DNA of 61,771 bases, filler included. It is 6 parts of 6 records of this genome, joined end to end, with 100 filler letters (N's around TTAATTAATTAA, not from the genome) between each part and the next. Parts side by side here need not be neighbours in the genome. Positions count along the whole stretch, not along the records: positions 1 to 12,568 come from DRR723986_4186; 5 more parts are not named here. One strand, 5' to 3'. Position 1 is the first letter of the stretch. Each line of letters starts with the position of its first letter. The translations under genes were made by a program, and so were the position numbers. Below the pieces are notes generated by a model. That model did not search any database and was not told the DNA's origin. It worked only from the letters and a program-made list of their open reading frames with translations. Positions 1-51,626 of the stretch are shown piece after piece.

Positions 1-78
1 GCGGACGCCCCACTTGTAGCCGGCCTGGTCGGCGTCGTTGCGGACGCCCCATTTGTATCCTTGTTGCTCTGCTGAATT
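1..78 (-). repeat. 39-bp (13-aa) tandem coding repeat, two units visible, probably continuing past the edge
   Basis: Units 1-39 and 40-78 both begin gcggacgcccca(c/t)ttgta(g/t)cc and encode N-x-A-[DE]-Q-x-GYKWGVR. Confidence 0.85.
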
Positions 79-414
79 CTTTGCCGCCATCTGACTGGAT
101 GATGGGGTTACCTGAGACGCTGTAGTTTCGGATCTAGCATCATCCCACTTGTATCCATCTCGCGTCTGCTGGTTGTTAGTCCAAGCTGAAGTCGCATTTG
201 ATGTGGATACTGAAGAATCTTGCGAATTGCCCCACTTGTATCCGCCATTGGATACTGGCGAAGCTGCGTAGTTGGCGTCGGCTGCTAGAGCATGGCTGAC
301 ACGATGTACCGCGCTGATGCCGCTAGTATCGGAACCTTCTGCAAAACTCGTCCCTGATGAGGCGAGGAGTAGTGCCGCAATTGCTGTCTGTGTTCTCACG
401 TCTACCCTTTTCAT
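1..414 (-). CDS. Secreted GYKW(G)-repeat protein, 3'-truncated at the window edge (absent from the ORF track)
   Basis: Manual translation: ATG at 414 after AGGCAGGT, open to base 1 (138 codons). Starts MKRVDVRTQTAIAALLLASSGTSFA|EG (Sec-type signal peptide). Four GYKW motifs; ends ...NSAEQQGYKWGVRNDADQAGYKWGVR. Confidence 0.9.
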   Translation of the reverse strand, partial: MKRVDVRTQTAIAALLLASSGTSFAEGSDTSGISAVHRVSHALAADANYAASPVSNGGYKWGNSQDSSVSTSNATSAWTNNQQTRDGYKWDDARSETTASQVTPSSSQMAAKNSAEQQGYKWGVRNDADQAGYKWGVR

Positions 415-579
415 AATGCACCTGCCTTTTAACCTGCCTAGTAGTTGAACGCTTCTGGAAGCCACCAACCGTGGCCAATTTCCAAACACGCGATCTCCGA
501 CTGAGATCAAATACGCATCTCTTATCTGGATGCTTAGGTTCGTTATAAAGTCGAGGGGCTATTTGAAGAAGGTTCGAGT

Positions 580-595
580 TACCCCCTTTGGGGTA
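580..595. promoter_or_regulatory. 7-2-7 palindrome, candidate transcription factor site (copy 1)
   Basis: TACCCCC-TT-TGGGGTA, upstream of a minus-strand TATAAC -10-like hexamer at 547-542. Confidence 0.5.
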
Positions 596-706
596 GCTGC
601 TGATTTCTGAGGGGCGTCGGGGGGCTAGAGCGCCGGGTTTCGTTGCGACATAAGTTATTGATAAATATAGGTAAAAAGCGAAATATCGGGTTTGTCTGGA
701 GAAGAT

Positions 707-722
707 TGCCCCATATGGGGTA
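707..722. promoter_or_regulatory. 7-2-7 palindrome, candidate transcription factor site (copy 2)
   Basis: TGCCCCA-TA-TGGGGTA, the same motif as at 580-595. Confidence 0.45.
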
Positions 723-747
723 ACACGGCCAACAGGGGCCTTGCGGA

Positions 748-2727
748 TTAGTTTTTCTGGCTTTTGGGGCTGCCCGCCAGACGCTCAATTTCTGCCTTTT
801 CCTCAAGGTAGATGCGCTCCCAGTCGAAGGGGAGGTCGGGGAGGCGTGGTGCTATTTCTGCTGGTTGGGTCCGGCGTTCCACGTGCGCTTTCACCCCCCA
901 GCGGCGGTTATCGCTATGGCCTTTCTCGGATTCGTCCCCGGCGTACATGCGTTCCAGGCCGGGCAGGCTCACACGTCCGGTATCGTCCATGATCGCGGGT
1001 CCCTGGTAATGGTCCTCTCCCGCCATATCCTTGCGTATGTCCATGTCGGGGTTGCCGCAGCCGCGTTTGCCCAGGGTGATGGCCCGGGTGACGCTCACAT
1101 AGCCGTTACCTTGTTGGAAGGGGCTGTAGGCGAGGCGGCCATCGCGATTGATTGCCAGGTCTGCGCTGGTGATCAATTTGCACTTGACGTCATCGGGGCT
1201 CAGATCGGGCTGCAGTTGCAATAAAAGTGCGATCAGCCCCGAAACGAGTGCGCTGGCCTGGGAGGTGCCGGTCATCACGAACTCACCGCTCTGCAGGTGG
1301 TATTCGGGGAACTGCTCACTGAGGCTTGAGCCCGGTCGGGTCAGGCCGGTGATATGCCCGCCAGGAGCGACGATGTCAGGCTTGATATGCGCGCTCGGGG
1401 TTGGCCCGCGAGAGGAAAAGTCCGGTATGTAGTCGTCATCGGGAGTTTCCACCGTCCAGGAATCAGTGACCGCACCCACGGTGATGATATAGGGGAGATT
1501 GCCCGGTGAGCCGATAGACATCGCTTCTGGCCCCTCGTTACCCGCGGCTGCGACCACTGTGATGCCGGAATCCCAGGCCCGCATGATGGCCTGGTTAATG
1601 GGGTCGAGCCAGTAAGGCCAACGCGGCCTTGCCGCGAATGAGAGGTTCAGCACCCGGATATCAAGGCGCTCGCGATTGTCCACCACCCACTGCACGCCCC
1701 GCACGATATCCAGGAAGTCTCCCTGGCCTTCCACGTCGAAGGCTTTAACCGCCACGATCCGGCTATCGGGCGCTATCCCCTTAAATGTGCCGGTCCTCGC
1801 GCCATCTCTTGTCGTCGTGCCACTGTGGGCGATGATGCTGGTCATGTGCGTGCCATGACCGCTCTCGTCAAACACCTCGGAGTTAACCGTGTCGTCGATA
1901 GCGTTGTAGCGCCCGATGATGCGAGGTGCGCCTGCCGTGTCGGTGGCCAGTGTCGGGTGTTCCCACAGGCCCGAATCGAGAACGGCAACGGTTATGCCGC
2001 GGCCGGTGATCCCGTGCGCGTGCAGTGCGGCGGCACCCGTCACGGTGGCGAAGTAGTGGTCGCCATGGTTATTCGGGTAGCCCGGAATCAGCTCGGCCTT
2101 GCAGTCCTCCCCGAAATCCGCCTCCAGGGAGAAGTCCCGCTGTAGCGCGGTGGTCACCGGCTGGGTGAAGCGTGCACGCAGGATGGATTTGCCGGGTTCT
2201 AATGAATAGCTGTTGTCGAGTGATAACTCGCCGCTGGCAGGCTCGGTGATCTCGAGCTTGTGCTCGTCGAGGAACAGAGCCTCCAGGCTGCCTAATTGTT
2301 CCGGCCAATCGAAGCTGATTGTGTGCAGTTGGGCCGGGGCATCGTCTTTATTAAACAGGGGCCAGCCCAGTTCATTATCTTGCAGTGTCAGTTCCAGCCC
2401 GGCACCAATCTGGCAGGTCTCCGCCTCCGTCGGTTCATCGGGTTCCTCGGATACCGCGAGGTCATCGATGTAACGACTTACCAGTTCGGAGTCGCGAATG
2501 CTTTCGAATTGGGACGCGGCAAGCTCAGCACCCACGGCATTGATGATCGGCAGGTGATGGGTGACCCGCCCTCCGGCGCTTTCCACCAGGCGGGCCATGT
2601 CGGTGGCGGACGTGCCCTGCAGCATTACCCGCAGCGGTGGCGCGTCCTCAGTACTGTCTGCAGCGAACGTCGGGGCCGTGAGGGCAAGGCCGGCCAGCAG
2701 GGGAATCGGTAGTAGACGTTGGATCAT
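748..2727 (-). CDS. Secreted S8 (subtilisin-family) serine peptidase
   Basis: Signal peptide, propeptide-like N-terminus, catalytic motifs VAVLDSG, HGTHM and GTSQAS, and oxyanion motif AAGNEG. Confidence 0.95.
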   Translation of the reverse strand: MIQRLLPIPLLAGLALTAPTFAADSTEDAPPLRVMLQGTSATDMARLVESAGGRVTHHLPIINAVGAELAASQFESIRDSELVSRYIDDLAVSEEPDEPTEAETCQIGAGLELTLQDNELGWPLFNKDDAPAQLHTISFDWPEQLGSLEALFLDEHKLEITEPASGELSLDNSYSLEPGKSILRARFTQPVTTALQRDFSLEADFGEDCKAELIPGYPNNHGDHYFATVTGAAALHAHGITGRGITVAVLDSGLWEHPTLATDTAGAPRIIGRYNAIDDTVNSEVFDESGHGTHMTSIIAHSGTTTRDGARTGTFKGIAPDSRIVAVKAFDVEGQGDFLDIVRGVQWVVDNRERLDIRVLNLSFAARPRWPYWLDPINQAIMRAWDSGITVVAAAGNEGPEAMSIGSPGNLPYIITVGAVTDSWTVETPDDDYIPDFSSRGPTPSAHIKPDIVAPGGHITGLTRPGSSLSEQFPEYHLQSGEFVMTGTSQASALVSGLIALLLQLQPDLSPDDVKCKLITSADLAINRDGRLAYSPFQQGNGYVSVTRAITLGKRGCGNPDMDIRKDMAGEDHYQGPAIMDDTGRVSLPGLERMYAGDESEKGHSDNRRWGVKAHVERRTQPAEIAPRLPDLPFDWERIYLEEKAEIERLAGSPKSQKN

Positions 2728-2748
2728 CGAGCGCTTGAGGCCCGGGCT

Positions 2749-4584
2749 TCAGCCCCTGATGGCGTCATCGATTTTTCGGGAAAAGTTCTGGCGCAGGATG
2801 TCGGGCACGTCCTCGGGGTACAGTGGACGCGCGAAGTAATAACCCTGCAGCAAATCGCACTCCTTGTTGGCGAGGTAGCGCAGTTGTTCTTCGGTTTCGA
2901 TGCCCTCGGCAATTGAGCGCAGCTTGAGTGTCTTCGACAGGGCCAGTACCGCATCGATGATTGCTGCCCCGTCCGGGCTGTTGAGGTCGGCCACGAAGCT
3001 CTGGTCTATCTTGAGCGTATTGATCGGGAAGCGCTTCAGGTAGCTCAGGGACGAATAGCCGGTACCGAAGTCGTCCACTGCGAGGTCCAGCCCCAGGGCC
3101 TTCAGCTCCCGCAGTTTGGCAATGTTGGTTTCGGCATCGGTCATGATCGCGCTTTCAGTCAGTTCCAGCTCGAGGCGATCGGCGCGCAGGCCGGAGCGCC
3201 CAAGGAAATCCTCAACGTACTGGGTGAGATTGGGCTGGTTAAACTGGAGCGGCGAGATGTTCACACAGACGCGAAATTCCGGCAGCCCGAGGGTATCCCA
3301 GTAGAGGCAGTTACGCGCCACCTCGTTGAGTACCCAGCCGCCCAGTTCGATAATCTGCCCGGTGCGCTCGGCCACCGGGATGAACTCCACCGGCGAGACC
3401 ATCCCGCGCACCGGGTGCTTCCAGCGCACCAGTGCCTCCATGCTGACCACGGTGCCGCTCTTGGCGTCGATCTGTGGCTGGTAGCGCAGTTCAAGCTGGT
3501 CGGAGCGCAGGGCTTCACGCAACTCCTCTTCCATCTTGAGTTGCTCCACCGAGCGCGAATTCATTTCCTCATTGTAGAAGCGGTAGCAGGCCCGGCCTTC
3601 CGCCTTCGCTGCGTACATGGCGGTATCGGCATTACGCACCAGCGTATCGGGGTCGCTGCCATCCTGCGGGTACAGCGCGATCCCGATGCTGGGTGTCACC
3701 ACGGGGTTGTGGGATTGCAGCGGGATGGGCTCTGACAGGGATTTGAGAATACGCTTGGCCACGGTTTCTATCCCCGATGCGTCATCGACATCGGAGAGCA
3801 CTACGGTGAACTCGTCGCCGCCAAGCCTGGCGATTTCTGTGTTGCTGTCCGGATCATTCTCGGCGCTGGAGTCCGAGTAGTAGTTGATGGTGTCGTCTTC
3901 CCGCAGTTCCAGGCTCAGGCGCTTGGCAATTTCGACCAGCAGGCGGTCGCCGCGGCCGTGACCGATGGAGTCATTGATGCGCTTGAAGTGGTCCAGGTCG
4001 ATGAACAGCAGCGCTGCACTGGTGCCCCGGCGTTCGCAGCGCCGCAGGATCCGGTTGAGTTGTTCGTTGAAGCTGCGCCGATTCGGCAGTGAGGTCAGCG
4101 GATCGTAGTAGGCAAGGTAGCGCAGGCGGTCTTCCTGGCGCTTGAGTGCGTTAAAGGCATCGCTGGCGCGCAGCATGTATTGCACGTCGCGACCGAGTAA
4201 GGACCAGTTAACCGGTTTGGTCTTGTACTGGGTTGCGCCAGCCTCGAAGCCCTGGTCGATCGACTGGCGATCATCCGAGCCGGTCACAATCATGATCGGG
4301 ATTGATTCGCCCCGCGGCATTTCGCGAATGCGCTGGCACACTTCCAGCCCGCTCATCCCCGGCATTTCCACGTCGAGAAACACCAGGTCAGGCCGCTCCC
4401 GGACGAAAACGTCGATGGCTTCCGGCCCGTTGGCCGCCTCGACGACCACCATGTTTTCGGCTTCCAGACACTGGCGCGTCAGCAGCCGCACGTTCAGGTC
4501 ATCGTCGGCGACCAGGATCTTGGGTCGTTGGCGGTAGGGTGAATCCGTTGAGGCCATAAACTGCGGTTTTTCGTGGATGCTCAT
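2749..4584 (-). CDS. Response regulator with REC-GGDEF-EAL domains
   Basis: REC motifs ILVADDD, LVFLDVEMP, VTG and TKP; RLGGDEF; MEALVRW; VDDFGTGYSS. Confidence 0.95.
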   Translation of the reverse strand: MSIHEKPQFMASTDSPYRQRPKILVADDDLNVRLLTRQCLEAENMVVVEAANGPEAIDVFVRERPDLVFLDVEMPGMSGLEVCQRIREMPRGESIPIMIVTGSDDRQSIDQGFEAGATQYKTKPVNWSLLGRDVQYMLRASDAFNALKRQEDRLRYLAYYDPLTSLPNRRSFNEQLNRILRRCERRGTSAALLFIDLDHFKRINDSIGHGRGDRLLVEIAKRLSLELREDDTINYYSDSSAENDPDSNTEIARLGGDEFTVVLSDVDDASGIETVAKRILKSLSEPIPLQSHNPVVTPSIGIALYPQDGSDPDTLVRNADTAMYAAKAEGRACYRFYNEEMNSRSVEQLKMEEELREALRSDQLELRYQPQIDAKSGTVVSMEALVRWKHPVRGMVSPVEFIPVAERTGQIIELGGWVLNEVARNCLYWDTLGLPEFRVCVNISPLQFNQPNLTQYVEDFLGRSGLRADRLELELTESAIMTDAETNIAKLRELKALGLDLAVDDFGTGYSSLSYLKRFPINTLKIDQSFVADLNSPDGAAIIDAVLALSKTLKLRSIAEGIETEEQLRYLANKECDLLQGYYFARPLYPEDVPDILRQNFSRKIDDAIRG

Positions 4585-4649
4585 CGATGCCTCAGGCTAA
4601 CATTCCCCGCGGGGCGCGCCTAGTAAAGTGCGCTCGCGGTTCGTGCTTT

Positions 4650-6428
4650 TCAGGAGATAATGCGTTCACGCCGCTTGAACCGCTGCTCCTGCACGAAGCG
4701 GGGCAGCTGTTGCAATGGAATCGCCGGGCTGAAATAAAATCCCTGGACCTGCTGGCAGTGCTGTTCGGTGAGAAATTCGATCTGCTCACGGGTCTCCGCG
4801 CCTTCGGCCACCACAAGCATCTCCAGCCGCTTCGCCATCTCGATGATCATGCTGCAAACGGCAACCTGCTGGGCGTTATGGGGCAGTTCGCGAACGAAGC
4901 TGCCGTCGATCTTGAGGGCTGCGATAGGCAACTCGGTCAGGTGCGAGAGCTGGGAGAAGCCGGTGCCGAAATCGTCCAGGGAGAAGGAAATACCCAGCAG
5001 TCGCAGCTCGTCCATCCGGCTCTTGATGGTTTCCGGGCTTTTCAGGATGGTGCCCTCGGTGAGCTCCATTTCAATGCGTCGTGCATTGGCGCCGGTCCGC
5101 TTGAGGATATTCTTTACGATATCGAGGAAGCGGTCATCCTGTATCTGGCTGAAGGAAATATTGACCGCAACGTCGACCTCGCTCAGGCCCTGTTGTTGCA
5201 GCCAGACCTGGGCCGAGCAGGCGTGCTGGATGACCTGGTAGCCGATGGTTTTCAGCAGCCCCATGTCCTCGCAGGCGGCAATGAACTCCGCGGGGCAGAG
5301 CATACCGCGCTCCGGGTGATTCCAGCGCAGCAGGGCCTCGAGGCCGACCAGCTCACCGGACTGCAGGTCCATGCGCGGCTGGTAGTGCAATTCAAACTGG
5401 TTTTTACGGACCGCTGCCCGCAGTTCCGCGGCCAGTGAGTGGCTGCCGGCTTCATCGAAGTGAATCTGGTCGGTGTAGCGGCTGTAGTGGCTGCCGGGCA
5501 CGGACTTGGCCTGCTGCATGGCGCTGCGGCTGTGTTCGATCAGGTCGGCCATTTCCTCGCTGTCCTGGGGAAAGATTGCCGCGCCAATGCTGGCATTCAC
5601 CGAGACCTGGTGATCGCCAAGGGCGACCGGGTCGGAAATCGAATCGAGCATCTTGCGGGCAATCAGTTCAACGTCGGCAGCAGAGCTCACGTCCTCAAGG
5701 ATCACCGCGAACTCATCACCGCCGAGTCGTGCGATGCTGTCGGTGCTGCGGAGTTTGTTGAGCATGCGCCGGCTGAGGGTGCGAATCATGTCGTCGCCGG
5801 CCAGTTCGCCATGGTGGTCGTTGACGTTGGCAAACTGGTCGATGTTGATGTAGAGCAGCGCGGTGCTGAAGTCGTAGCGCCGTGAGCGCTCCATGGCGCG
5901 TTCCAGGTGAGCCCGGAAGCCGCCCCGGTTGAGAGCGCCGGTCAGGGGGTCGCGACTGGATAACTGCCGGATCTGCGCCCGCGCCTGTTTGAGCTGGATG
6001 CAGTAGTCGAGGATCCGGTGAACGACGCTATCCTGCAGTTGCCCACGGACAAAATAGTCCTGGGCGCCGGCGGCGCGCAGCTGTTGCAGGGAATCGTCCT
6101 GGGCCTCGTCGATCAGCAGGATGATCGGCACAGCCGTGTCGTTTTTCTGGGCCAGGCGCAGGAGGTAGTCAGTCTGTGGTCCATCGGCCATGATTACCGC
6201 ATCGACCGAGGCGTGGGTGAGGGCATCCAGGGGGCGTTCCAGTGCCTCCACGCTGTCCACGACAAAGCGTTTTGGCACGGCACGTTCCAGGCAGGCGGTG
6301 AGGATCAGTTGATCCGTCGGCTGGTCTGAAATGATTAATACCCTGTGCCTGGTCACGGCAAGTCCCACATGTTCACTCGTTTTCCGTCCCTGTCGGTAAC
6401 GGCAATCCCCATCGCCGACCGCTGGCAC
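4650..6428 (-). CDS. GGDEF-EAL protein with a degenerate N-terminal REC-like domain (true start probably near 6356)
   Basis: RSTD-SIARL-GGDEF (canonical I-site spacing), LEALLRW and LDDFGTGFS. The N-terminus VLIISDQ...GAQDYF is receiver-like. Confidence 0.92.
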   Translation of the reverse strand: MPAVGDGDCRYRQGRKTSEHVGLAVTRHRVLIISDQPTDQLILTACLERAVPKRFVVDSVEALERPLDALTHASVDAVIMADGPQTDYLLRLAQKNDTAVPIILLIDEAQDDSLQQLRAAGAQDYFVRGQLQDSVVHRILDYCIQLKQARAQIRQLSSRDPLTGALNRGGFRAHLERAMERSRRYDFSTALLYINIDQFANVNDHHGELAGDDMIRTLSRRMLNKLRSTDSIARLGGDEFAVILEDVSSAADVELIARKMLDSISDPVALGDHQVSVNASIGAAIFPQDSEEMADLIEHSRSAMQQAKSVPGSHYSRYTDQIHFDEAGSHSLAAELRAAVRKNQFELHYQPRMDLQSGELVGLEALLRWNHPERGMLCPAEFIAACEDMGLLKTIGYQVIQHACSAQVWLQQQGLSEVDVAVNISFSQIQDDRFLDIVKNILKRTGANARRIEMELTEGTILKSPETIKSRMDELRLLGISFSLDDFGTGFSQLSHLTELPIAALKIDGSFVRELPHNAQQVAVCSMIIEMAKRLEMLVVAEGAETREQIEFLTEQHCQQVQGFYFSPAIPLQQLPRFVQEQRFKRRERIIS

Positions 6429-6618
6429 TTCGTGCCTAATTCTTTATATTACATGGAGTTATACGGAATTATTGATAATAATTCTAGTGAATGTTTATTA
6501 AAAATTACCGCCCGGGAGTAGTTTCCGGTGAGCGCATCGTGGCCTCGCCCGTCATTGCCCGGCAGCGCTCCTCGATTAAGCTGCCCGTGGGCCAGAATTT
6601 CCGCCAGGAGACCCAGCC

Positions 6619-8604
6619 ATGCCAAAGGCTTATGCCGCTACTTTTGTTGCCAGTCTGCTGGGCTGCCTGGTCGCTTGCGGCGTGCCGACACCGCCGGAAG
6701 ACAGCTTTGCTGCCAGGGATTACGGCGGGCCGGAGGCGCAACCCTGCGCTGACCGGGTGGTCACCGGCAAAGCACTGTTCGGCGACCTGCATGTGCATAC
6801 GGCCTATTCCAGCGATGCCTGGAATTTCGGCGTGCGGGTTGGGCCTGGTGACGCTTACGCCTATGCCTTCGGTGAGCCGATAGCGCTGCCGCTGGCCGGC
6901 GAGCCCGGGCAGCGACAGGCCCGCATCGACCGGCCGTTGGACTTCGCGGCCGTTACTGACCACGCTGAATTTCTCGGTGAGAAGGCCGTTTGCCTCGATC
7001 CCTCATCAGCGGGCTACGCCACAGGATTCTGCGAGGCAATGCGCAGCGGCGAGGGCAGGGCTCCGGCCCTGGTGATGCGCATCATGTCGCCGTTCTCGTC
7101 CCGGGATAAAGAGGTCTGCGGGGGAGACGGCAGTGAGTGTGATCGCCGCGCCGGGCAGGCCTGGGACGACATGATCGCCGCAGCACAACACTATCAGGAC
7201 AGCAGCGACGCCTGCGAGCGCACCACCTTCATCGCCTATGAATACAGTTCCCATCGCCTGGGCTCCAACCTGCACCGCAATGTGATTTTCCGTGGCAGCG
7301 TGGTGCCGCGACGCCCGATTTCCTATATCGACGCCCATCGCGAATGGGATCTCTGGCGCATCCTGCAGGCGCAGTGCCTTGACAGCAGTCTGGGCTGCGA
7401 CGTGCTGGCCATCCCCCATAACGCCAATATCAGCAACGGTCGCATGTTCGCAGTCGATTACCCGGGCCTGCACTCGACCGAGTCACAGGCTGCCCGCGCG
7501 GCACTGCGTGCGCGGATGGAACCGGTGGTCGAGATCATGCAGCACAAGGGCGACTCGGAATGCCGGCGCGGTCTCAGCGGTGTGCTCGGTGACGTCGATG
7601 AACTGTGTGACTTCGAAAAGTTCGAGACCCAGGCGTTTGAGTCCACCCACGATCCGGGTGAGGAAGTGGGCAGCTGCTATGCCGGGCCGTTGGCCGATTG
7701 GCTGCCACACCTTGGTCCCGACTGCCTGGATCGTCTGAGCTACACGCGCTACGCACTGATTGAGGGTCTTCGCGAGCAGCAGCGTCTGGGTGTGAACCCC
7801 TTTAAGTTCGGCCTCGCCGCCAGTACCGACACCCACAATGGGCTGGCCGGCGGCGTGGGCGAGCGCGACTTCCCGGGTCACCTGGGGCTGTCAGATGCCA
7901 CGGCAGAACAGCGGGTGCGGTTTGATGCCGAGATCGCCGGCAATGCCAATAACAATCCCGGTGGACTGATCGGCGTATGGGCCCCTGAGAACTCGCGCCA
8001 TGCGATCTTCGATGCCCTGCAGCGCCGGGAAGTGTTCGGCACCAGTGGGCCGCGGATCCTGCCTCGCTTCTTTGCCGGCTGGGACTTGCCGGAGGCACTG
8101 TGTGAGCAGGGGGATATGCTCGAGCAAGCCTATGCCCGGGGTGTGCCGATGGGCGGTGACCTGGCAGGTGGTGGTGGCGGGGCGCCGGCTTTCCTGGTTG
8201 CCGCGGCGGCGGATGCCGGCGTCCCCGAGCAACCGGGCTTGCCCCTGCAGCGCTTGCAGGTGATCAAGGGTTGGGCGGATGCGCAGGGCAATCATCACCA
8301 GCGGGTATTTGACGTTGCCGGCGATCCGGACAACGGCGCCTCGGTTGACCCCAACACCTGTGAACCGCAGGGCGAGGGCTTTGCCCAGCTGTGCAAGGTC
8401 TGGCGCGACCCCGAGTTCGACCCGTCGCTGGCGTCAGTCTATTACCTGCGTGCCATTGAAAACCCGAGTTGCCGCTACAACGCTCACCAGTGCCTGCAGC
8501 TGCCAGCGGATGAGCGGCCGGCCGACTGCCAGTCCCCGCGCGTTGCCCCGATCATCCAGGAACGGGCCTGGAGTTCGCCCATCTGGTACACCCCGGCGGG
8601 CTGA
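6619..8604 (+). CDS. DUF3604-like lipoprotein (PHP-type metal-binding motifs)
   Basis: Lipobox LVAC; motifs FGDLHVHT, VTDH, NLHRN, STDTH; C-terminal ERAWSSPIWY. Confidence 0.85.
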   Translation: MPKAYAATFVASLLGCLVACGVPTPPEDSFAARDYGGPEAQPCADRVVTGKALFGDLHVHTAYSSDAWNFGVRVGPGDAYAYAFGEPIALPLAGEPGQRQARIDRPLDFAAVTDHAEFLGEKAVCLDPSSAGYATGFCEAMRSGEGRAPALVMRIMSPFSSRDKEVCGGDGSECDRRAGQAWDDMIAAAQHYQDSSDACERTTFIAYEYSSHRLGSNLHRNVIFRGSVVPRRPISYIDAHREWDLWRILQAQCLDSSLGCDVLAIPHNANISNGRMFAVDYPGLHSTESQAARAALRARMEPVVEIMQHKGDSECRRGLSGVLGDVDELCDFEKFETQAFESTHDPGEEVGSCYAGPLADWLPHLGPDCLDRLSYTRYALIEGLREQQRLGVNPFKFGLAASTDTHNGLAGGVGERDFPGHLGLSDATAEQRVRFDAEIAGNANNNPGGLIGVWAPENSRHAIFDALQRREVFGTSGPRILPRFFAGWDLPEALCEQGDMLEQAYARGVPMGGDLAGGGGGAPAFLVAAAADAGVPEQPGLPLQRLQVIKGWADAQGNHHQRVFDVAGDPDNGASVDPNTCEPQGEGFAQLCKVWRDPEFDPSLASVYYLRAIENPSCRYNAHQCLQLPADERPADCQSPRVAPIIQERAWSSPIWYTPAG

Positions 8605-8665
8605 TTTCGGAGCGGGGCAAATGTGCTAGACTTGCCCTCCTTTTTCATACCGTCCTCGCCGTCCC

Positions 8666-9739
8666 ATGAGCATCGCATCCGACAAACTGGAGACTATCCG
8701 CCAGCAGGTTCAGTATCACCTGGATCATGCGGAGCGCAAGAAATTGAGCCCCGCGCAGGAGGACGAACTCAAGCAGCAGATCAAGGCGCGCCTGAAGGCG
8801 GAGAACGCGGTTATCGTCGCGCATTACTACACTGCGCCGGCGATCCAGGCCCTGGCCGAGGAAACCGGCGGCTGCGTATCCGATTCCCTGGAAATGGCGC
8901 GCTTCGGCCATGATCATCCGGCGACTACCCTGATCGTCGCCGGGGTGAAATTCATGGGCGAGACGGCCAAGATCCTGACCCCCGAGAAGCGGGTGCTCAT
9001 GCCCACCCTCGAGGCCACCTGCTCGCTGGACCTCGGTTGTCCGATCGAGGAGTTTTCCGCGTTCTGTGATGCCCACCCGGATCGCACGGTGGTGGTGTAT
9101 GCCAACACCTCGGCGGCGGTAAAAGCCCGGGCTGACTGGGTGGTCACTTCCAGTATTGCGCTGGATGTGGCGGAGCACCTTGCCGACCAGGGTAAGAAAA
9201 TCATCTGGGCGCCAGATCGGCACCTGGGCGACTACGTACGCCGCGAGACCGGCGCCGATATCCTGATGTGGGATGGCGCCTGTATTGTGCACGAGGAATT
9301 CAAGGCCCGGGGTATTGCCGACCTGAAGAACGTTTACCCGGACGCGGCGGTGCTGGTGCATCCCGAGTCACCGGCATCCGTGCTGGAACTCGCTGACCGG
9401 GTGGGTTCTACCACCCAGATTATTCGCGCTGCCACCGAGATGCCTAACGACCGGTTTATCGTCGCCACCGACCAGGGCATCTTCTACAAGCTGCAGCAGC
9501 AGGCGCCGGACAAGGAGTTCATTATCGCGCCCACGGCAGGGGAGGGTGCGACCTGTCGCAGCTGTGCCAACTGCCCGTGGATGGCGATGAACGAGTTGGA
9601 GACGCTGGCGACGGTCTTTGACCGCAGCGACAATGAGATTTTCGTCGACCCCGAGCTGGGCCAGCGTGCCATGGTACCCCTGCGCCGTATGCTGGATTTC
9701 GCAGCGGAGCTGCGCCTGCCGGTGAAAGGGAAGGCCTGA
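8666..9739 (+). CDS. nadA: Quinolinate synthase A
   Basis: [30 protein letters not shown] and CPWMAMN motifs. Confidence 0.97.
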
Positions 9740-9745
9740 ACCCGC

Positions 9746-11263
9746 TTACAGCTCCATCTGTTCGCGCATCTCAGCGATATCCCGCAGCCGCTGGTTGATG
9801 GTCGCGCTGGTGTGGTAGTCGTTCTTCACCAGTTCCAGCGCATAGTTCAGCTGTTTCTCCGCCTGGTCCAGGATGCCGTTGAGGATAAAATACTCGGCGC
9901 GTGACTGGTGCAGGCCAATGATGTTACCCGACAGGCCCTGCACTTCTGCCAGCAGATACCAGAGCCCGGGATCATTGGGTTTCACCTTGCTCTGGTCCAC
10001 CAGGACTTCCTCGGCGACATGGGCCTGCTGGTCGCGCATCAGGGCATCCGCGTAGGCCATGGTAAGCGGGTGGTTGCCGGGTGACAGGGCCAGCCGTTTT
10101 TCCAGTTTCCTGATCGCTTTATCCGGCTCGTTGCGCACCTTGTCGATTTCGGCGTCGGCGATGATGTATTCGATCCGGTCCGGTGTGCGCGACCAGATGC
10201 CGTCCAGTTCCAGGCTGGCCTCGTCCGGTCGCCCGGCGGCGGTCAGCGCCAGCACCAGGCCGTAGCTTGCCGCCTCCCGGGAACGCGTGGTGCCGTCCAG
10301 CTCACCGCGGAACTTCTGCACGGCCTCCTCGGGGGTGTCCGCCAGCTGGTTAACCACCCGGGCCCGCATCAGCTGGTAGTCGAGGCTGGGCTCGCGAATC
10401 TGCTTGGGATACTGGCGCGCCCGGTTGCGGGTATCGGCGATGCGGTTTTCCGACAGCGGGTGAGTCCGCAGGAATTCGGGTATGCGGCTGCCGCTGGTAT
10501 AGCGGGATGCCTGCAGCATGCGCTCGAACATGGCCGGTGCCGCGTGCGGATCCATGTCCGCTGCCACCAGGGTCTGCATGCCCACCCGGTCGGCCTCGGC
10601 CTCGTTGCTGCGGCTGTAGCGCAGGGCGGAATCCTGGGCCGCGGCCTGCGCCGCCGACAGGGCAGCCATGCCGGCGTCGCTGCCGGCGGTAGCCATCAGC
10701 ACCAATCCTGCCAGCATGGCGGCGAGATTGAGCGGCTGCTGTTTCTTGGCAAACTCGACCCGCCGGGAAAAGTGACGCTGGCTGAGGTGGGCGATTTCGT
10801 GGGCCAGCACCGTGGCCAGTTCGTCCTCGGTCTGGGCGTAGAGCAGCAGGCCGTTATGTACGCCGATGATGCCGCCGGGGACCGCGAAGGCATTGATCGT
10901 CGGGTTATTGACCACGACCAGCTCCAGGCGCCGGTCTTCGAGCTGGCTATGGGTGACCAGGCGGAAGATCAGGTCCTCAAGGTAGCTGAACAGCAGTGGG
11001 TCCTCGATGGTGGGCACCTGGGACCGGAAAATCCGCAGCCAGGTCCGGCCCAGCTGGTGTTCGTATTCGGCGGAGTACAGGCTGCTGCTGCCCTCACCGA
11101 GATTGGGCAGCTTGAGCTCCTCGGTGTTGGCGCTGGCGGTCACCGCCAGGCAGGCCCACAGCACGGCGAGGCCGGTGCGTCGCAGCAACTTGGGCAGGGG
11201 TGTGGCAAAAGGTTTCAAAAGCTGGAGAACACTCGCTGGTCCGGGTCCCGGTGTGTGGCCCAT
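9746..11263 (-). CDS. bepA: M48 family metalloprotease with C-terminal TPR region (BepA/YfgC-like; start probably slightly downstream)
   Basis: INAFAVPGG, AHEIAH (HExxH), EAEADR and FLRTHP; divergent from the tusA-like and AI-2E permease genes. Confidence 0.88.
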   Translation of the reverse strand: MGHTPGPGPASVLQLLKPFATPLPKLLRRTGLAVLWACLAVTASANTEELKLPNLGEGSSSLYSAEYEHQLGRTWLRIFRSQVPTIEDPLLFSYLEDLIFRLVTHSQLEDRRLELVVVNNPTINAFAVPGGIIGVHNGLLLYAQTEDELATVLAHEIAHLSQRHFSRRVEFAKKQQPLNLAAMLAGLVLMATAGSDAGMAALSAAQAAAQDSALRYSRSNEAEADRVGMQTLVAADMDPHAAPAMFERMLQASRYTSGSRIPEFLRTHPLSENRIADTRNRARQYPKQIREPSLDYQLMRARVVNQLADTPEEAVQKFRGELDGTTRSREAASYGLVLALTAAGRPDEASLELDGIWSRTPDRIEYIIADAEIDKVRNEPDKAIRKLEKRLALSPGNHPLTMAYADALMRDQQAHVAEEVLVDQSKVKPNDPGLWYLLAEVQGLSGNIIGLHQSRAEYFILNGILDQAEKQLNYALELVKNDYHTSATINQRLRDIAEMREQMEL

Positions 11264-11400
11264 TGTAAGGCATAGGGCCGGGCGGGCGATAAATCAAACA
11301 ACATTGGCTTAGAGCGTCGCTCCCGGTGTAAAGTTCAGCGCCTTTTGGCGTACCGCGCCTAACCGATATACTGTCGCTAAAAGCACCGGGACCCAGTTTA

Positions 11401-11634
11401 ATGACCTACGCTGATCTTGTGGAAGTGGATGCCATTGGGCTCACCTGCCCCATGCCCTTGCTCAAGGCGAAGCGCGCGCTCAATGGCATGCGCAGCGGGC
11501 AGCATCTTCGGGTGTTGGCGACAGACCAGGGTTCAGTGCGCGATTTCGAGGTATTCGCCAGCCAATCGGGTAACGAACTGCTGGAATCATCAGAATCCGA
11601 CGGGGTTTACATCCACGTGATTCGCAAGAGCTGA
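11401..11634 (+). CDS. tusA: TusA/SirA family sulfur carrier
   Basis: DAIGLTCPMPLL (CPxP) and ATDQGSVRD; 77 aa. Confidence 0.85.
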   Translation: MTYADLVEVDAIGLTCPMPLLKAKRALNGMRSGQHLRVLATDQGSVRDFEVFASQSGNELLESSESDGVYIHVIRKS

Positions 11635-11652
11635 ACAGGAGCGCCTGCAGCG

Positions 11653-12568
11653 ATGCTGGATATTTTTAACAAGTGGTACCGACGATACCTGTTCGAAGAG
11701 GAGTCGATTCTGCTCCTGGTGCTGCTGATTATCAGCGTTGTCCTGCTGATGACCATCGGCAATATTATTGCGCCCCTGCTGGCCTCGGTCGTACTGGCCT
11801 ACCTGATGCAGGGCGTCGCCAATGTGCTGCAGCGCGGCGGCTTGCCGCCCTGGGCCGGGGTAAGCCTGTCCTACATCATCTTCGTGGGTGCCTTTTTCGG
11901 CATCACATTGCTGCTGCTGCCGCTGGTCTGGCGTCAGCTGGTCAGTCTTGCCAGTGAACTGCCGCGGATGCTGGAACAAGGCCGGCACTTCCTCGGCGTG
12001 TTGCCGGAACGCTATCCCGAGCTTATCAGCCAGCAACAGCTGAACGAGGCCATGGGGATGGCCCAGCGGGAACTGGCCGGTCTGGGCCAGCGCCTGGTGA
12101 CCCGCTCACTTGCCGGTATTCCGGGCCTGTTCGTGGTCATGGTGTACATGATCCTGATCCCGCTGCTGGTGTTTTTCTTCCTCAAGGACCGGGAGCTGAT
12201 CATCAACTGGCTGACGGGCTTTCTGCCGGAAAAGCGGCCCCTGCTGACCCGGATCTGGGGGGAGATGGATGTGCAGGTGGCCAATTACGCCCGGGGCAAG
12301 GTGGTGGAAATCATCCTGGTCGGCGCGGTCACGTATATCGCCTTTACCTGGCTGGGGTTGAACTACGCGGCCCTGCTCGCCTTGCTGGTGGGGCTCTCGG
12401 TCATCATCCCCTATGTGGGGGCCATCCTGGTGACCCTGCCGGTAGTGGCGGTGGCGTTTTTCCAGTGGGGCTTTGCCAATGAATTTTATTACGTTGCCGC
12501 GGTCTATCTGATCATCCAGGGCCTGGACGGCAATGTGCTGGTGCCGCTGCTGTTTTCCGAAGCGGTGA
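11653..12568 (+). CDS. AI-2E family (PerM-like) transporter, 3'-truncated
   Basis: Multiple TM helices, FFFLKD, IPYVG and IQGLDGNVLVPLLFSEAV. Confidence 0.9.
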
Positions 12569-12668
12569 NNNNNNNNNNNNNNNNNNNNNNNNNNNNNNNN
12601 NNNNNNNNNNNNTTAATTAATTAANNNNNNNNNNNNNNNNNNNNNNNNNNNNNNNNNNNNNNNNNNNN
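12569..12668. other. Artificial contig spacer
   Basis: N-run, TTAATTAATTAA (stops in all six frames), N-run. Confidence 0.99.
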
Positions 12669-21501: not shown

Positions 21502-21601
21502 NNNNNNNNNNNNNNNNNNNNNNNNNNNNNNNNNNNNNNNNNNNNTTAATTAATTAANNNNNNNNNNNNNNNNNNNNNNNNNNNNNNNNNNNNNNNNNNN
21601 N
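21502..21601. other. Artificial contig spacer
   Basis: N-run, TTAATTAATTAA, N-run. Confidence 0.99.
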
Positions 21602-51526: not shown

Positions 51527-51626
51527 NNNNNNNNNNNNNNNNNNNNNNNNNNNNNNNNNNNNNNNNNNNNTTAATTAATTAANNNNNNNNNNNNNNNNNN
51601 NNNNNNNNNNNNNNNNNNNNNNNNNN
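51527..51626. other. Artificial contig spacer
   Basis: N-run, TTAATTAATTAA, N-run. Confidence 0.99.

Follow-up and report, generated by a model that had tools for sequence, protein, structure and literature searches.

A family-wide Halieaceae cassette of subtilase, repeat precursor and propeller sensors with a design compatible with a multi-copy peptide signal

That membrane kinases read peptide pheromones is textbook matter for Gram-positive bacteria; in Gram-negatives such systems are, to our knowledge, almost undescribed. In the agr and ComC/ComD systems the peptide gene, its processing enzyme and a membrane kinase belong to one cassette, and the peptides are species-specific. The subject of this work is a cassette of the family Halieaceae whose first four genes, all on the minus strand, are found in a stretch of 61,771 nucleotides (the window), which is composed of six joined contigs; the part analysed for the cassette is the first contig piece, positions 1-12568. 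The conserved gene order is GGDEF-EAL regulator, REC-GGDEF-EAL regulator, S8 protease (a subtilase), secreted repeat precursor and two beta-propeller sensors. This cassette is real, family-wide and unannotated, and no description of it was found in the open-access literature by strict word conjunctions, which could miss one. As judged from sequence, its layout agrees with a peptide signal that is encoded in multiple copies, here in a Gram-negative lineage.

The cassette shares with agr and ComC/ComD the one-cassette layout, the species-specific peptides and a probable autoinduction. However, no AgrB, peptidase-ABC (ATP-binding cassette) exporter or LytTR was seen, the precursor is multi-copy and linear, and the output would be cyclic di-GMP (c-di-GMP). 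Hybrid two-component sensors of Bacteroides, whose propellers have sugar ligands, use the same extracytoplasmic families as the cassette sensors (Reg_prop, PF07494, and Y_Y_Y, PF07495). The cassette sensors differ from them in having REC and Hpt instead of an AraC output and a partner with a degenerate kinase, and their neighbours are a protease and a peptide precursor, whereas those of the Bacteroides sensors are glycosidases.

Fungal Kex2-processed repeat proteins, including the alpha-pheromone precursors, carry a signal peptide and near-identical repeated cores (PMC6339444). The likeness to the cassette lies in the signal peptide, the repeated cores with spacers, a protease of the subtilase family and the multi-copy release proposed here; the differences are the bacterial host, the lack of Lys-Arg dibasic sites between cores, the protease and receptor genes placed beside the precursor, and receptors that are propeller kinases rather than G-protein-coupled receptors. 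The propeptides of the RRNPPA systems of Bacillota (Phr, AimP) are exported by Sec and cut by extracellular proteases to a product of 5-10 residues, typically C-terminal and in no more than four copies, which is re-imported by Opp and read by cytoplasmic receptors (PMC11343458). In contrast, the cassette is found in Gram-negative hosts, its arrays reach 19 copies, its protease is a dedicated one and its sensors are membrane proteins; it shows no adjacent cytoplasmic TPR receptor, the neighbours of the precursor being the S8 protease and the propeller sensors. The logic of the cassette has precedents; the combination of its parts does not.

Conservation of the cassette and its sensors

The four genes of the window and their main features, in which signal peptides were called by eye from the sequence, are the following.

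1-414, minus: gene of the secreted repeat precursor, 138 residues, with its ATG start at 414; cut by the contig end and open at the window edge
428-421, minus: ribosome-site motif AAGGCAGG, upstream of the precursor start
340-414, minus: Sec-type signal peptide of the precursor, residues 1-25, ending S-F-A
268-309, minus: conserved leader helix VHRVSHALA...Y, from alignments
232-243, minus: first N-terminal GYKW motif, outside the array
145-156, minus: second N-terminal GYKW motif, outside the array, next residue D
40-78, minus: array unit 1, spacer NSAEQQ and core GYKWGVR (core at 60-40)
1-39, minus: array unit 2, spacer NDADQA and core GYKWGVR (core at 21-1)
748-2727, minus: secreted S8 protease, 659 residues, with signal, prodomain, insert of about 110 residues, catalytic domain and tail
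2068-2430, minus: the ~110-residue insert (residues about 100-220), with two conserved cysteines, that separates the prodomain from the catalytic domain
1977, 1857 and 1263, minus: catalytic residues D251, H291 and S489, respectively, with N397 as oxyanion residue
889-906, minus: core-like motif RRWGVK in the protease tail
2749-4584, minus: REC-GGDEF-EAL regulator, 611 residues, with intact receiver, GGDEF, EAL and DDFGTG motifs
4650-6356, minus: degenerate-REC-GGDEF-EAL regulator, probably 568 residues from GTG 6356, in a frame open to 6428 (4650-6428), with an RxxD site before GGDEF

The first-pass annotation of positions 1-6428 had described four co-oriented minus-strand genes, among them an open reading frame at 414-1 with a signal peptide and GYKW motifs at 243-232, 156-145, 60-49 and 21-10, preceded by a secreted subtilase with an intact D-H-S triad. 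All of these elements are present (the triad being D251, H291 and S489), and the last two motifs do belong to 13-residue tandem units, at 78-40 and 39-1; however, the proposed GYKWG does not hold at every motif, since the second one reads GYKWD. With respect to the two REC-GGDEF-EAL regulators also proposed, the 611-residue protein is complete, whereas the receiver of the upstream one is degenerate (17.9 bits versus a Pfam cut-off of 30.2). The likely start of the latter is GTG 6356, which gives 568 residues, the usual length of its relatives. The four GYKW sites are the only G[YF][KR]W matches in a coding frame of this region, and two or more GYKW copies appeared in 0 of 100,000 shuffles of the 138 precursor residues. 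The window edge is an assembly break inside the repeat array, as is typical of such arrays: 53 of 137 further arrays likewise run off their contig.

Relatives of the protease with 39-61% identity were found in Parahaliea, Sediminihaliea, Chromatocurvus and other genomes assigned to the Halieaceae. Of these 15 loci, 13 have a repeat gene after the protease, and the other two stop about 200 bases past it. Among 251 sampled Halieaceae genomes, 155 contain the repeat gene and 193 an S8 match (both in 153, repeat gene only in 2, S8 only in 40, neither in 56), so that 153 of the 155 repeat-bearing genomes have the protease. Lost synteny, which would have spoken against the first-pass annotation, was not observed: in 110 of the 111 genomes with both positions listed, the repeat match comes 130-615 bases after the protease and shares its strand. 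A free-standing repeat form was not detected outside the family, the 10 matches in 401 genomes of the order all being genomes of the family sample.

The order of the remaining genes was determined in 60 loci of 20 kb, picked for having both genes on long contigs. The 611-residue REC-GGDEF-EAL gene (70-90% identity among relatives) is immediately upstream of the protease in 60/60 of them, two in pieces, and would represent the fixed output gene of the cassette. The upstream regulator is an optional member, missing from 6 of 14 loci with upstream DNA. An extra opposite-strand GGDEF-type gene of about 410 residues is located between the two regulators in L079, L087-L091, L094, L097, L105, L113, L114 and L120.

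In relatives the cassette includes two propeller sensors, which would be the missing receptors of the system and in the window would lie past the contig edge. A propeller sensor is directly downstream of the precursor in 55/60 long loci, and the hybrid kinase is retained elsewhere in the genome for 5/5 loci without adjacent sensors, one of them in pieces. These loci (L101, L105, L110, L111 and L120) form a sub-clade with Arg-rich cores in which both sensors have moved from the cassette and been kept in the genome. The first sensor (1490 residues, Reg_prop/Y_Y_Y/HisKA/HATPase_c/REC/Hpt) has an intact H-box in 42/42 cases, while the second one (about 1030 residues) is far more divergent and its H-box is degenerate, with no HisKA match and a His at the aligned column in 20/42. 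No further large gene was found from the regulator to the second sensor in the 60 loci, the flanks being read by eye in 12.

Array anatomy, predicted product and promoter

The truncated precursor used as query matched no longer proteins, and a profile search did find relatives. Profile searches comprised 61 and 220 proteins, 150 of the 220 being among the matches listed; of 186 profile rows, 14 were judged by eye to be unrelated repeats and removed, and the three long ones checked among them are acidic G-x-N-W giants (see below). The relatives have about 130-380 residues and mostly 2-12 array copies, with a maximum of 19. Among the matches listed, a 13-residue period is present in 164 of 168 callable repeat proteins, and 133 end three residues past the last Trp, several others being partial; in the loci with a stop codon, the same end was found in 47/53 and 72/84.

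Each array unit is composed of a 7-residue core (W-3 to W+3) and a six-residue variable spacer. This core-plus-spacer anatomy had been predicted, and the contrast of alleles in 53 arrays, chosen by Trp spacing alone, agrees with it: the core positions show 23 extra amino-acid alleles versus 320 silent ones, and the six spacer positions 227 versus 276. The only constrained spacer position is the Gln at W-5 (8 amino-acid versus 31 silent alleles), and the spacer before the first core is irregular except for this Gln. Between species, 76 different cores were counted in 156 loci, for instance GYKWGIR, GFKWTNK, GNRWGRR and RNPWARS, every one of them containing a Trp and having a net charge of +1 to +4. 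For two cultured carriers, Chromatocurvus halotolerans DSM 23344 and Parahaliea mediterranea DSM 21924, the predicted cores are GYKWGIR and GYKWRIN, respectively. The junction between units is usually hydrophobic-Arg followed by Ser/Asn. A core that is constant within a gene, variable between species and flush with the C-terminus looks like that of a multi-copy signal precursor. These data point to a product of 7-8 residues rather than to a 13-mer, and the most probable product would be W-3 to W+3, GYKWGVR in the window.

Some precursors depart from this period: P0090 has 16-residue units in which the spacer is longer by three residues and the core unaltered, and others have units of 10-12 residues. 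The idea of dipeptidyl spacer trimming was rejected, since neither Ala nor Pro occupies the penultimate positions of the spacer.

Outside the array, the N-terminal motifs often remain G[YF][KR]W in relatives whose array core has changed. The precursor has no family match in Pfam or NCBIfam, and an Atlas structure search with it matched only an unnamed cluster. In the structure model of one relative the leader helix is the sole confidently modelled part (helix 32-45, with a predicted local distance difference test score, pLDDT, of about 77); the mean pLDDT is 57, each repeat forms one short strand (pLDDT 60-65), and no PDB fold matched at E <= 0.001. One relative is labelled as a YXWGXW repeat protein in UniRef; neither the window protein nor four relatives gave a WXXGXW-type Pfam match. 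There was likewise no match to curlin or Fap families, apart from a spurious CsgI-related one in one relative (17 bits versus a cut-off of 257).

In front of the precursor, the following elements were located.

542-570, minus: sigma70-like promoter, with a weak -35 box at 570-565, a 17 bp spacing and TATAAC at 547-542
580-595: palindrome TACCCC-N4-GGGGTA, which precedes the -35 box by about 10 bp
707-722: second copy of the palindrome

The promoter is based on an ungapped consensus, alignable in most of 61 loci; a generic promoter scan found none because the -35 box is too weak. The palindrome is present in 49/60 loci, at 3.0 per kb versus 0.03 per kb elsewhere in these loci, its consensus having been derived from the same intergenic regions in which it was counted. 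No genome-wide regulon was found with the strict pattern in five genomes: it occurs once in each of three genomes, is absent from the fourth, and in the fifth has two extra sites, at control level. Upstream of 16 other S8 genes, of which 15 are fused to repeats (see below), the palindrome was likewise not seen. It is probably an activator site for the precursor alone, and we take it to resemble the NarL-type 7-2-7 operator consensus; it can also fold as a hairpin.

The protease, its relatives with fused repeats and the other genes of the stretch

The window protein matches peptidase S8 (PF00082) with 173.6 bits versus a cut-off of 21.8, and D251, H291, S489 and N397 are invariant in 156/156 relatives. 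Its best solved relative by sequence is Tk-SP of Thermococcus kodakarensis (PDB 3AFG and 9UES, E ~1e-49). Tk-SP is a general protease, whereas the cassette protease has an N-terminal insert of no known family (no match in Pfam or the Atlas), carries a tail with WG and stands in a fixed context of signalling. The comparison with S8 proteases that mature peptides synthesized ribosomally and modified after translation (RiPPs), such as PatA/PatG, found no backing: the score for family TIGR03895 is 36.3 bits versus a cut-off of 421, and no RiPP modifying enzyme was found in the conserved run of the 60 loci (flanks by eye, 12 loci).

Eight genomes of the family that lack the repeat gene provided 12 S8 loci of lower score; in every one of these, the protease bears on its own tail W/F repeats of six residues, such as DGYFWN or AGNYWN. 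A propeller sensor is encoded near 8 of these 12 fused proteases, and a HAMP-GAF-GGDEF-EAL protein near one. In L046 and L047 the genes around the fused protease are those that match the two sensors best, together with a REC-GGDEF-EAL gene of 75-76% identity, and no separate precursor was found in these genomes by profile search. In a wider search, 1779 of 8000 scored S8 relatives had E <= 1e-60, and among the top 120, whose tails were checked, G-x-x-W tail repeats are present in 119 (period 6 in 111). The proteases with separate precursors and the fused ones form one group with a support of 99. Fused and cassette proteases belong to one clade, share the G-[YF]-x-W motif and have neighbours of the propeller or c-di-GMP kind, and they differ in that the former carry 6-mers on the protease instead of a separate 13-mer precursor, with no palindrome found in front. 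The WG of the tail motif is invariant in 156/156 separate-precursor proteases, and RRWGVK is placed roughly where the fused repeats begin (positions compared by eye). The model of one fused S8 is a confident subtilase, with Tk-SP also as best fold match, and repeats of pLDDT under 50. No description of S8 proteases with fused Trp-hexapeptide tails was found in the open-access literature.

Several features of individual fused loci can be added. The protease at L047:8694-11675 has about 60 identical AGNYWN copies, and genome G022 encodes five fused proteases. In L048, L049, L053, L055 and L057 the neighbours are propeller-GGDEF or propeller-HisKA_2 sensors and GGDEF-sigma54 activators. The N-terminal insert is common to the fused proteases of L046-L048 and L052, the extra GGDEF-type gene of about 410 residues also lies beside those of L046 and L047, and several fused relatives are labelled AprX in JGI. 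In L058, a more distant, tail-less S8 is situated between a REC-GGDEF-EAL gene and propeller genes, which indicates that the cassette context can exist without a visible repeat; it is followed by a secreted gene of 110 residues (L058:9626-9958) with one FQWG motif and no array, possibly a single-copy form.

Beside the cassette, the first contig piece contains genes for a DUF3604 lipoprotein-like protein (6619-8604), nadA (8666-9739) and an M48/TPR protease (9746-11263). In relatives, the cassette usually has the nadA and M48 genes as neighbours on its upstream side; the DUF3604 gene is not a usual neighbour. The six joined contigs are separated by spacers of the type N44-TTAATTAATTAA-N44 (12569-12668, 21502-21601, 31861-31960, 39299-39398 and 51527-51626) and differ in GC (guanine plus cytosine) content, and genes past 12568 may come from another organism.

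Proposed circuit and competing explanations

Gene content and array anatomy make it rather probable that the protease frees a heptapeptide signal which the sensors relay to c-di-GMP. The precursor and the protease would be exported by Sec, and the protease would cut after the last residue of the core, usually Arg, the six-residue spacer being removed by a second cut or by trimming. The yield would be many copies of a cationic Trp heptapeptide, GYKWGVR in the window, able to bind the periplasmic propellers of a sensor pair formed by an active hybrid kinase (REC, Hpt) and a divergent partner with a degenerate H-box. Phosphate would then move to the REC-GGDEF-EAL protein, shifting c-di-GMP, and a dimeric regulator at the palindrome would probably feed back on precursor transcription. 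Such a feedback would turn the circuit into a quorum- or confinement-sensing loop.

Co-variation between protease and peptide is suggestive only. On a tree of 156 non-redundant proteases, 28 cleft columns, mapped by what we take to be the subtilisin BPN' equivalences (E398 as S1 residue 156), were compared with rate-matched columns. Cleft changes on branches of radical core change reach 38.6% versus 27.9 +/- 3.0%, an enrichment that survives dropping the largest divergent clade and residue 367, which had been noticed before the test (p 0.005-0.03). E398 accompanies a basic last core residue in 107/124 loci versus 15/32 otherwise; among 12 independent pairs, 5.4 go the same way and 0 the opposite (median p 0.06). 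Three other pairings of protease and core residues were uninformative. Core distance follows the catalytic domain with a partial rho of 0.29 (42 loci, seven regions, the permutation ignoring kinship).

Other results weigh against the heptapeptide signal. Branches in which only the spacer changes are also cleft-enriched (31.1% versus 23.7%), and the cleft signal is therefore not specific to the core; it may come from the whole unit or from a lineage-wide acceleration. Arg367 was expected to go with a hydrophobic W+2; this agreed with 79 of 98 held-out loci and was not supported, because these reduce to about 3 independent pairs once kinship is allowed for. In the same 42 loci, core distance gives a partial rho of -0.09 with the propeller of the hybrid kinase and a weak 0.23 with that of the second sensor, with the same limits as above, and the cores mostly follow the tree, seldom switching between close kin. 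A DNA-binding regulator was seen neither within the cassette nor, in 12 loci, immediately past it; no sensor is found within 19 kb of 3 of the 12 fused proteases; and a stacked fold would likewise account for a constant core with loose spacers.

The whole uncut array might instead cluster or block the sensor propellers, the protease destroying or releasing it, so that the cell would read proteolysis or diffusion. Synteny, fused forms and identical cores fit this explanation equally well, the 13-residue period (164/168 proteins among the matches listed) is more rigid than a simple spacer requires, and the fused 6-mers show no obvious cut-site residue. However, the flush core ends, the irregular first spacer and copy numbers from about 2 to 19 are more easily explained by released units, and we regard an uncut ligand as unlikely, albeit deserving attention. 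Less favoured still, and rather improbable, is a beta-solenoid or functional amyloid with 13-residue rungs and Gln/Trp ladders, that is, a matrix or anchor protein trimmed by the protease and regulated by c-di-GMP, which corresponds to the less likely amyloid alternative already raised in the first-pass annotation. One short strand per repeat in the low-confidence model (pLDDT 60-65) would suit such a fold, and so would the Gln fixed two residues ahead of Gly, which recalls the Q-x-G of curli repeats. Acidic 13-residue G-x-N-W repeats are also used by unrelated giant proteins (P0065, P0097 and P0116; 1292-2809 residues, with dozens of G-[IV]-N-W repeats and no assigned family), which have no relation to the cassette. 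Against it stand the mean pLDDT of 57 and the lack of a fold match at the threshold given above, arrays of 2-4 copies, which are common, and whole lineages with GNRWRRR or GSRWRRD cores, devoid of hydrophobic residues; moreover, export genes of the curli or Fap type were not seen in the cassette in the 60 loci, where the fixed neighbours are sensors.

That the freed Arg/Trp-rich peptides hit other cells, as antimicrobial or anti-predator compounds whose production the sensors merely control, seems very improbable. Short Arg/Trp peptides can disrupt membranes, and all cores are cationic and contain Trp; nevertheless, most have just +2 and a single Trp, neither immunity nor exporter genes were seen in the 60 loci, and strict identity within the array together with exchange between species suits a receptor better. 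Finally, we give hardly any credit to the genes being mere conserved neighbours, the repeat protein serving only the protease, as its inhibitor or chaperone, and having nothing to do with the sensors. Vertical inheritance within one family can preserve gene order, and in five genomes the sensors have moved away, but the link of protease, repeat and sensor recurs rearranged and fused (L046, L047) and also with other outputs, e.g., propeller-GGDEF.

Extended to the fused proteases, the heptapeptide signal would belong to a Gram-negative class of peptide quorum sensing, for which we would give slightly less than an even chance. In this class, a subtilase would free Trp-core peptides from its own tail, the widespread form, or from a separate precursor, the form of the Halieaceae; pairs of propeller sensors would pass the signal to c-di-GMP; protease cleft, peptide and second sensor would co-diverge into species dialects; and the promoter would be autoinducing. 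The cassette names all the parts of such a system (signal sequence, protease, receptors, output and promoter), and at least 155 of the 251 genomes sampled carry it, in a marine family that is abundant and has strains in culture. If this reading is true, it would provide a peptide ligand for propeller sensors that are usually assumed to sense sugars, and it would explain the Trp-repeat tails of a large set of unannotated subtilases.

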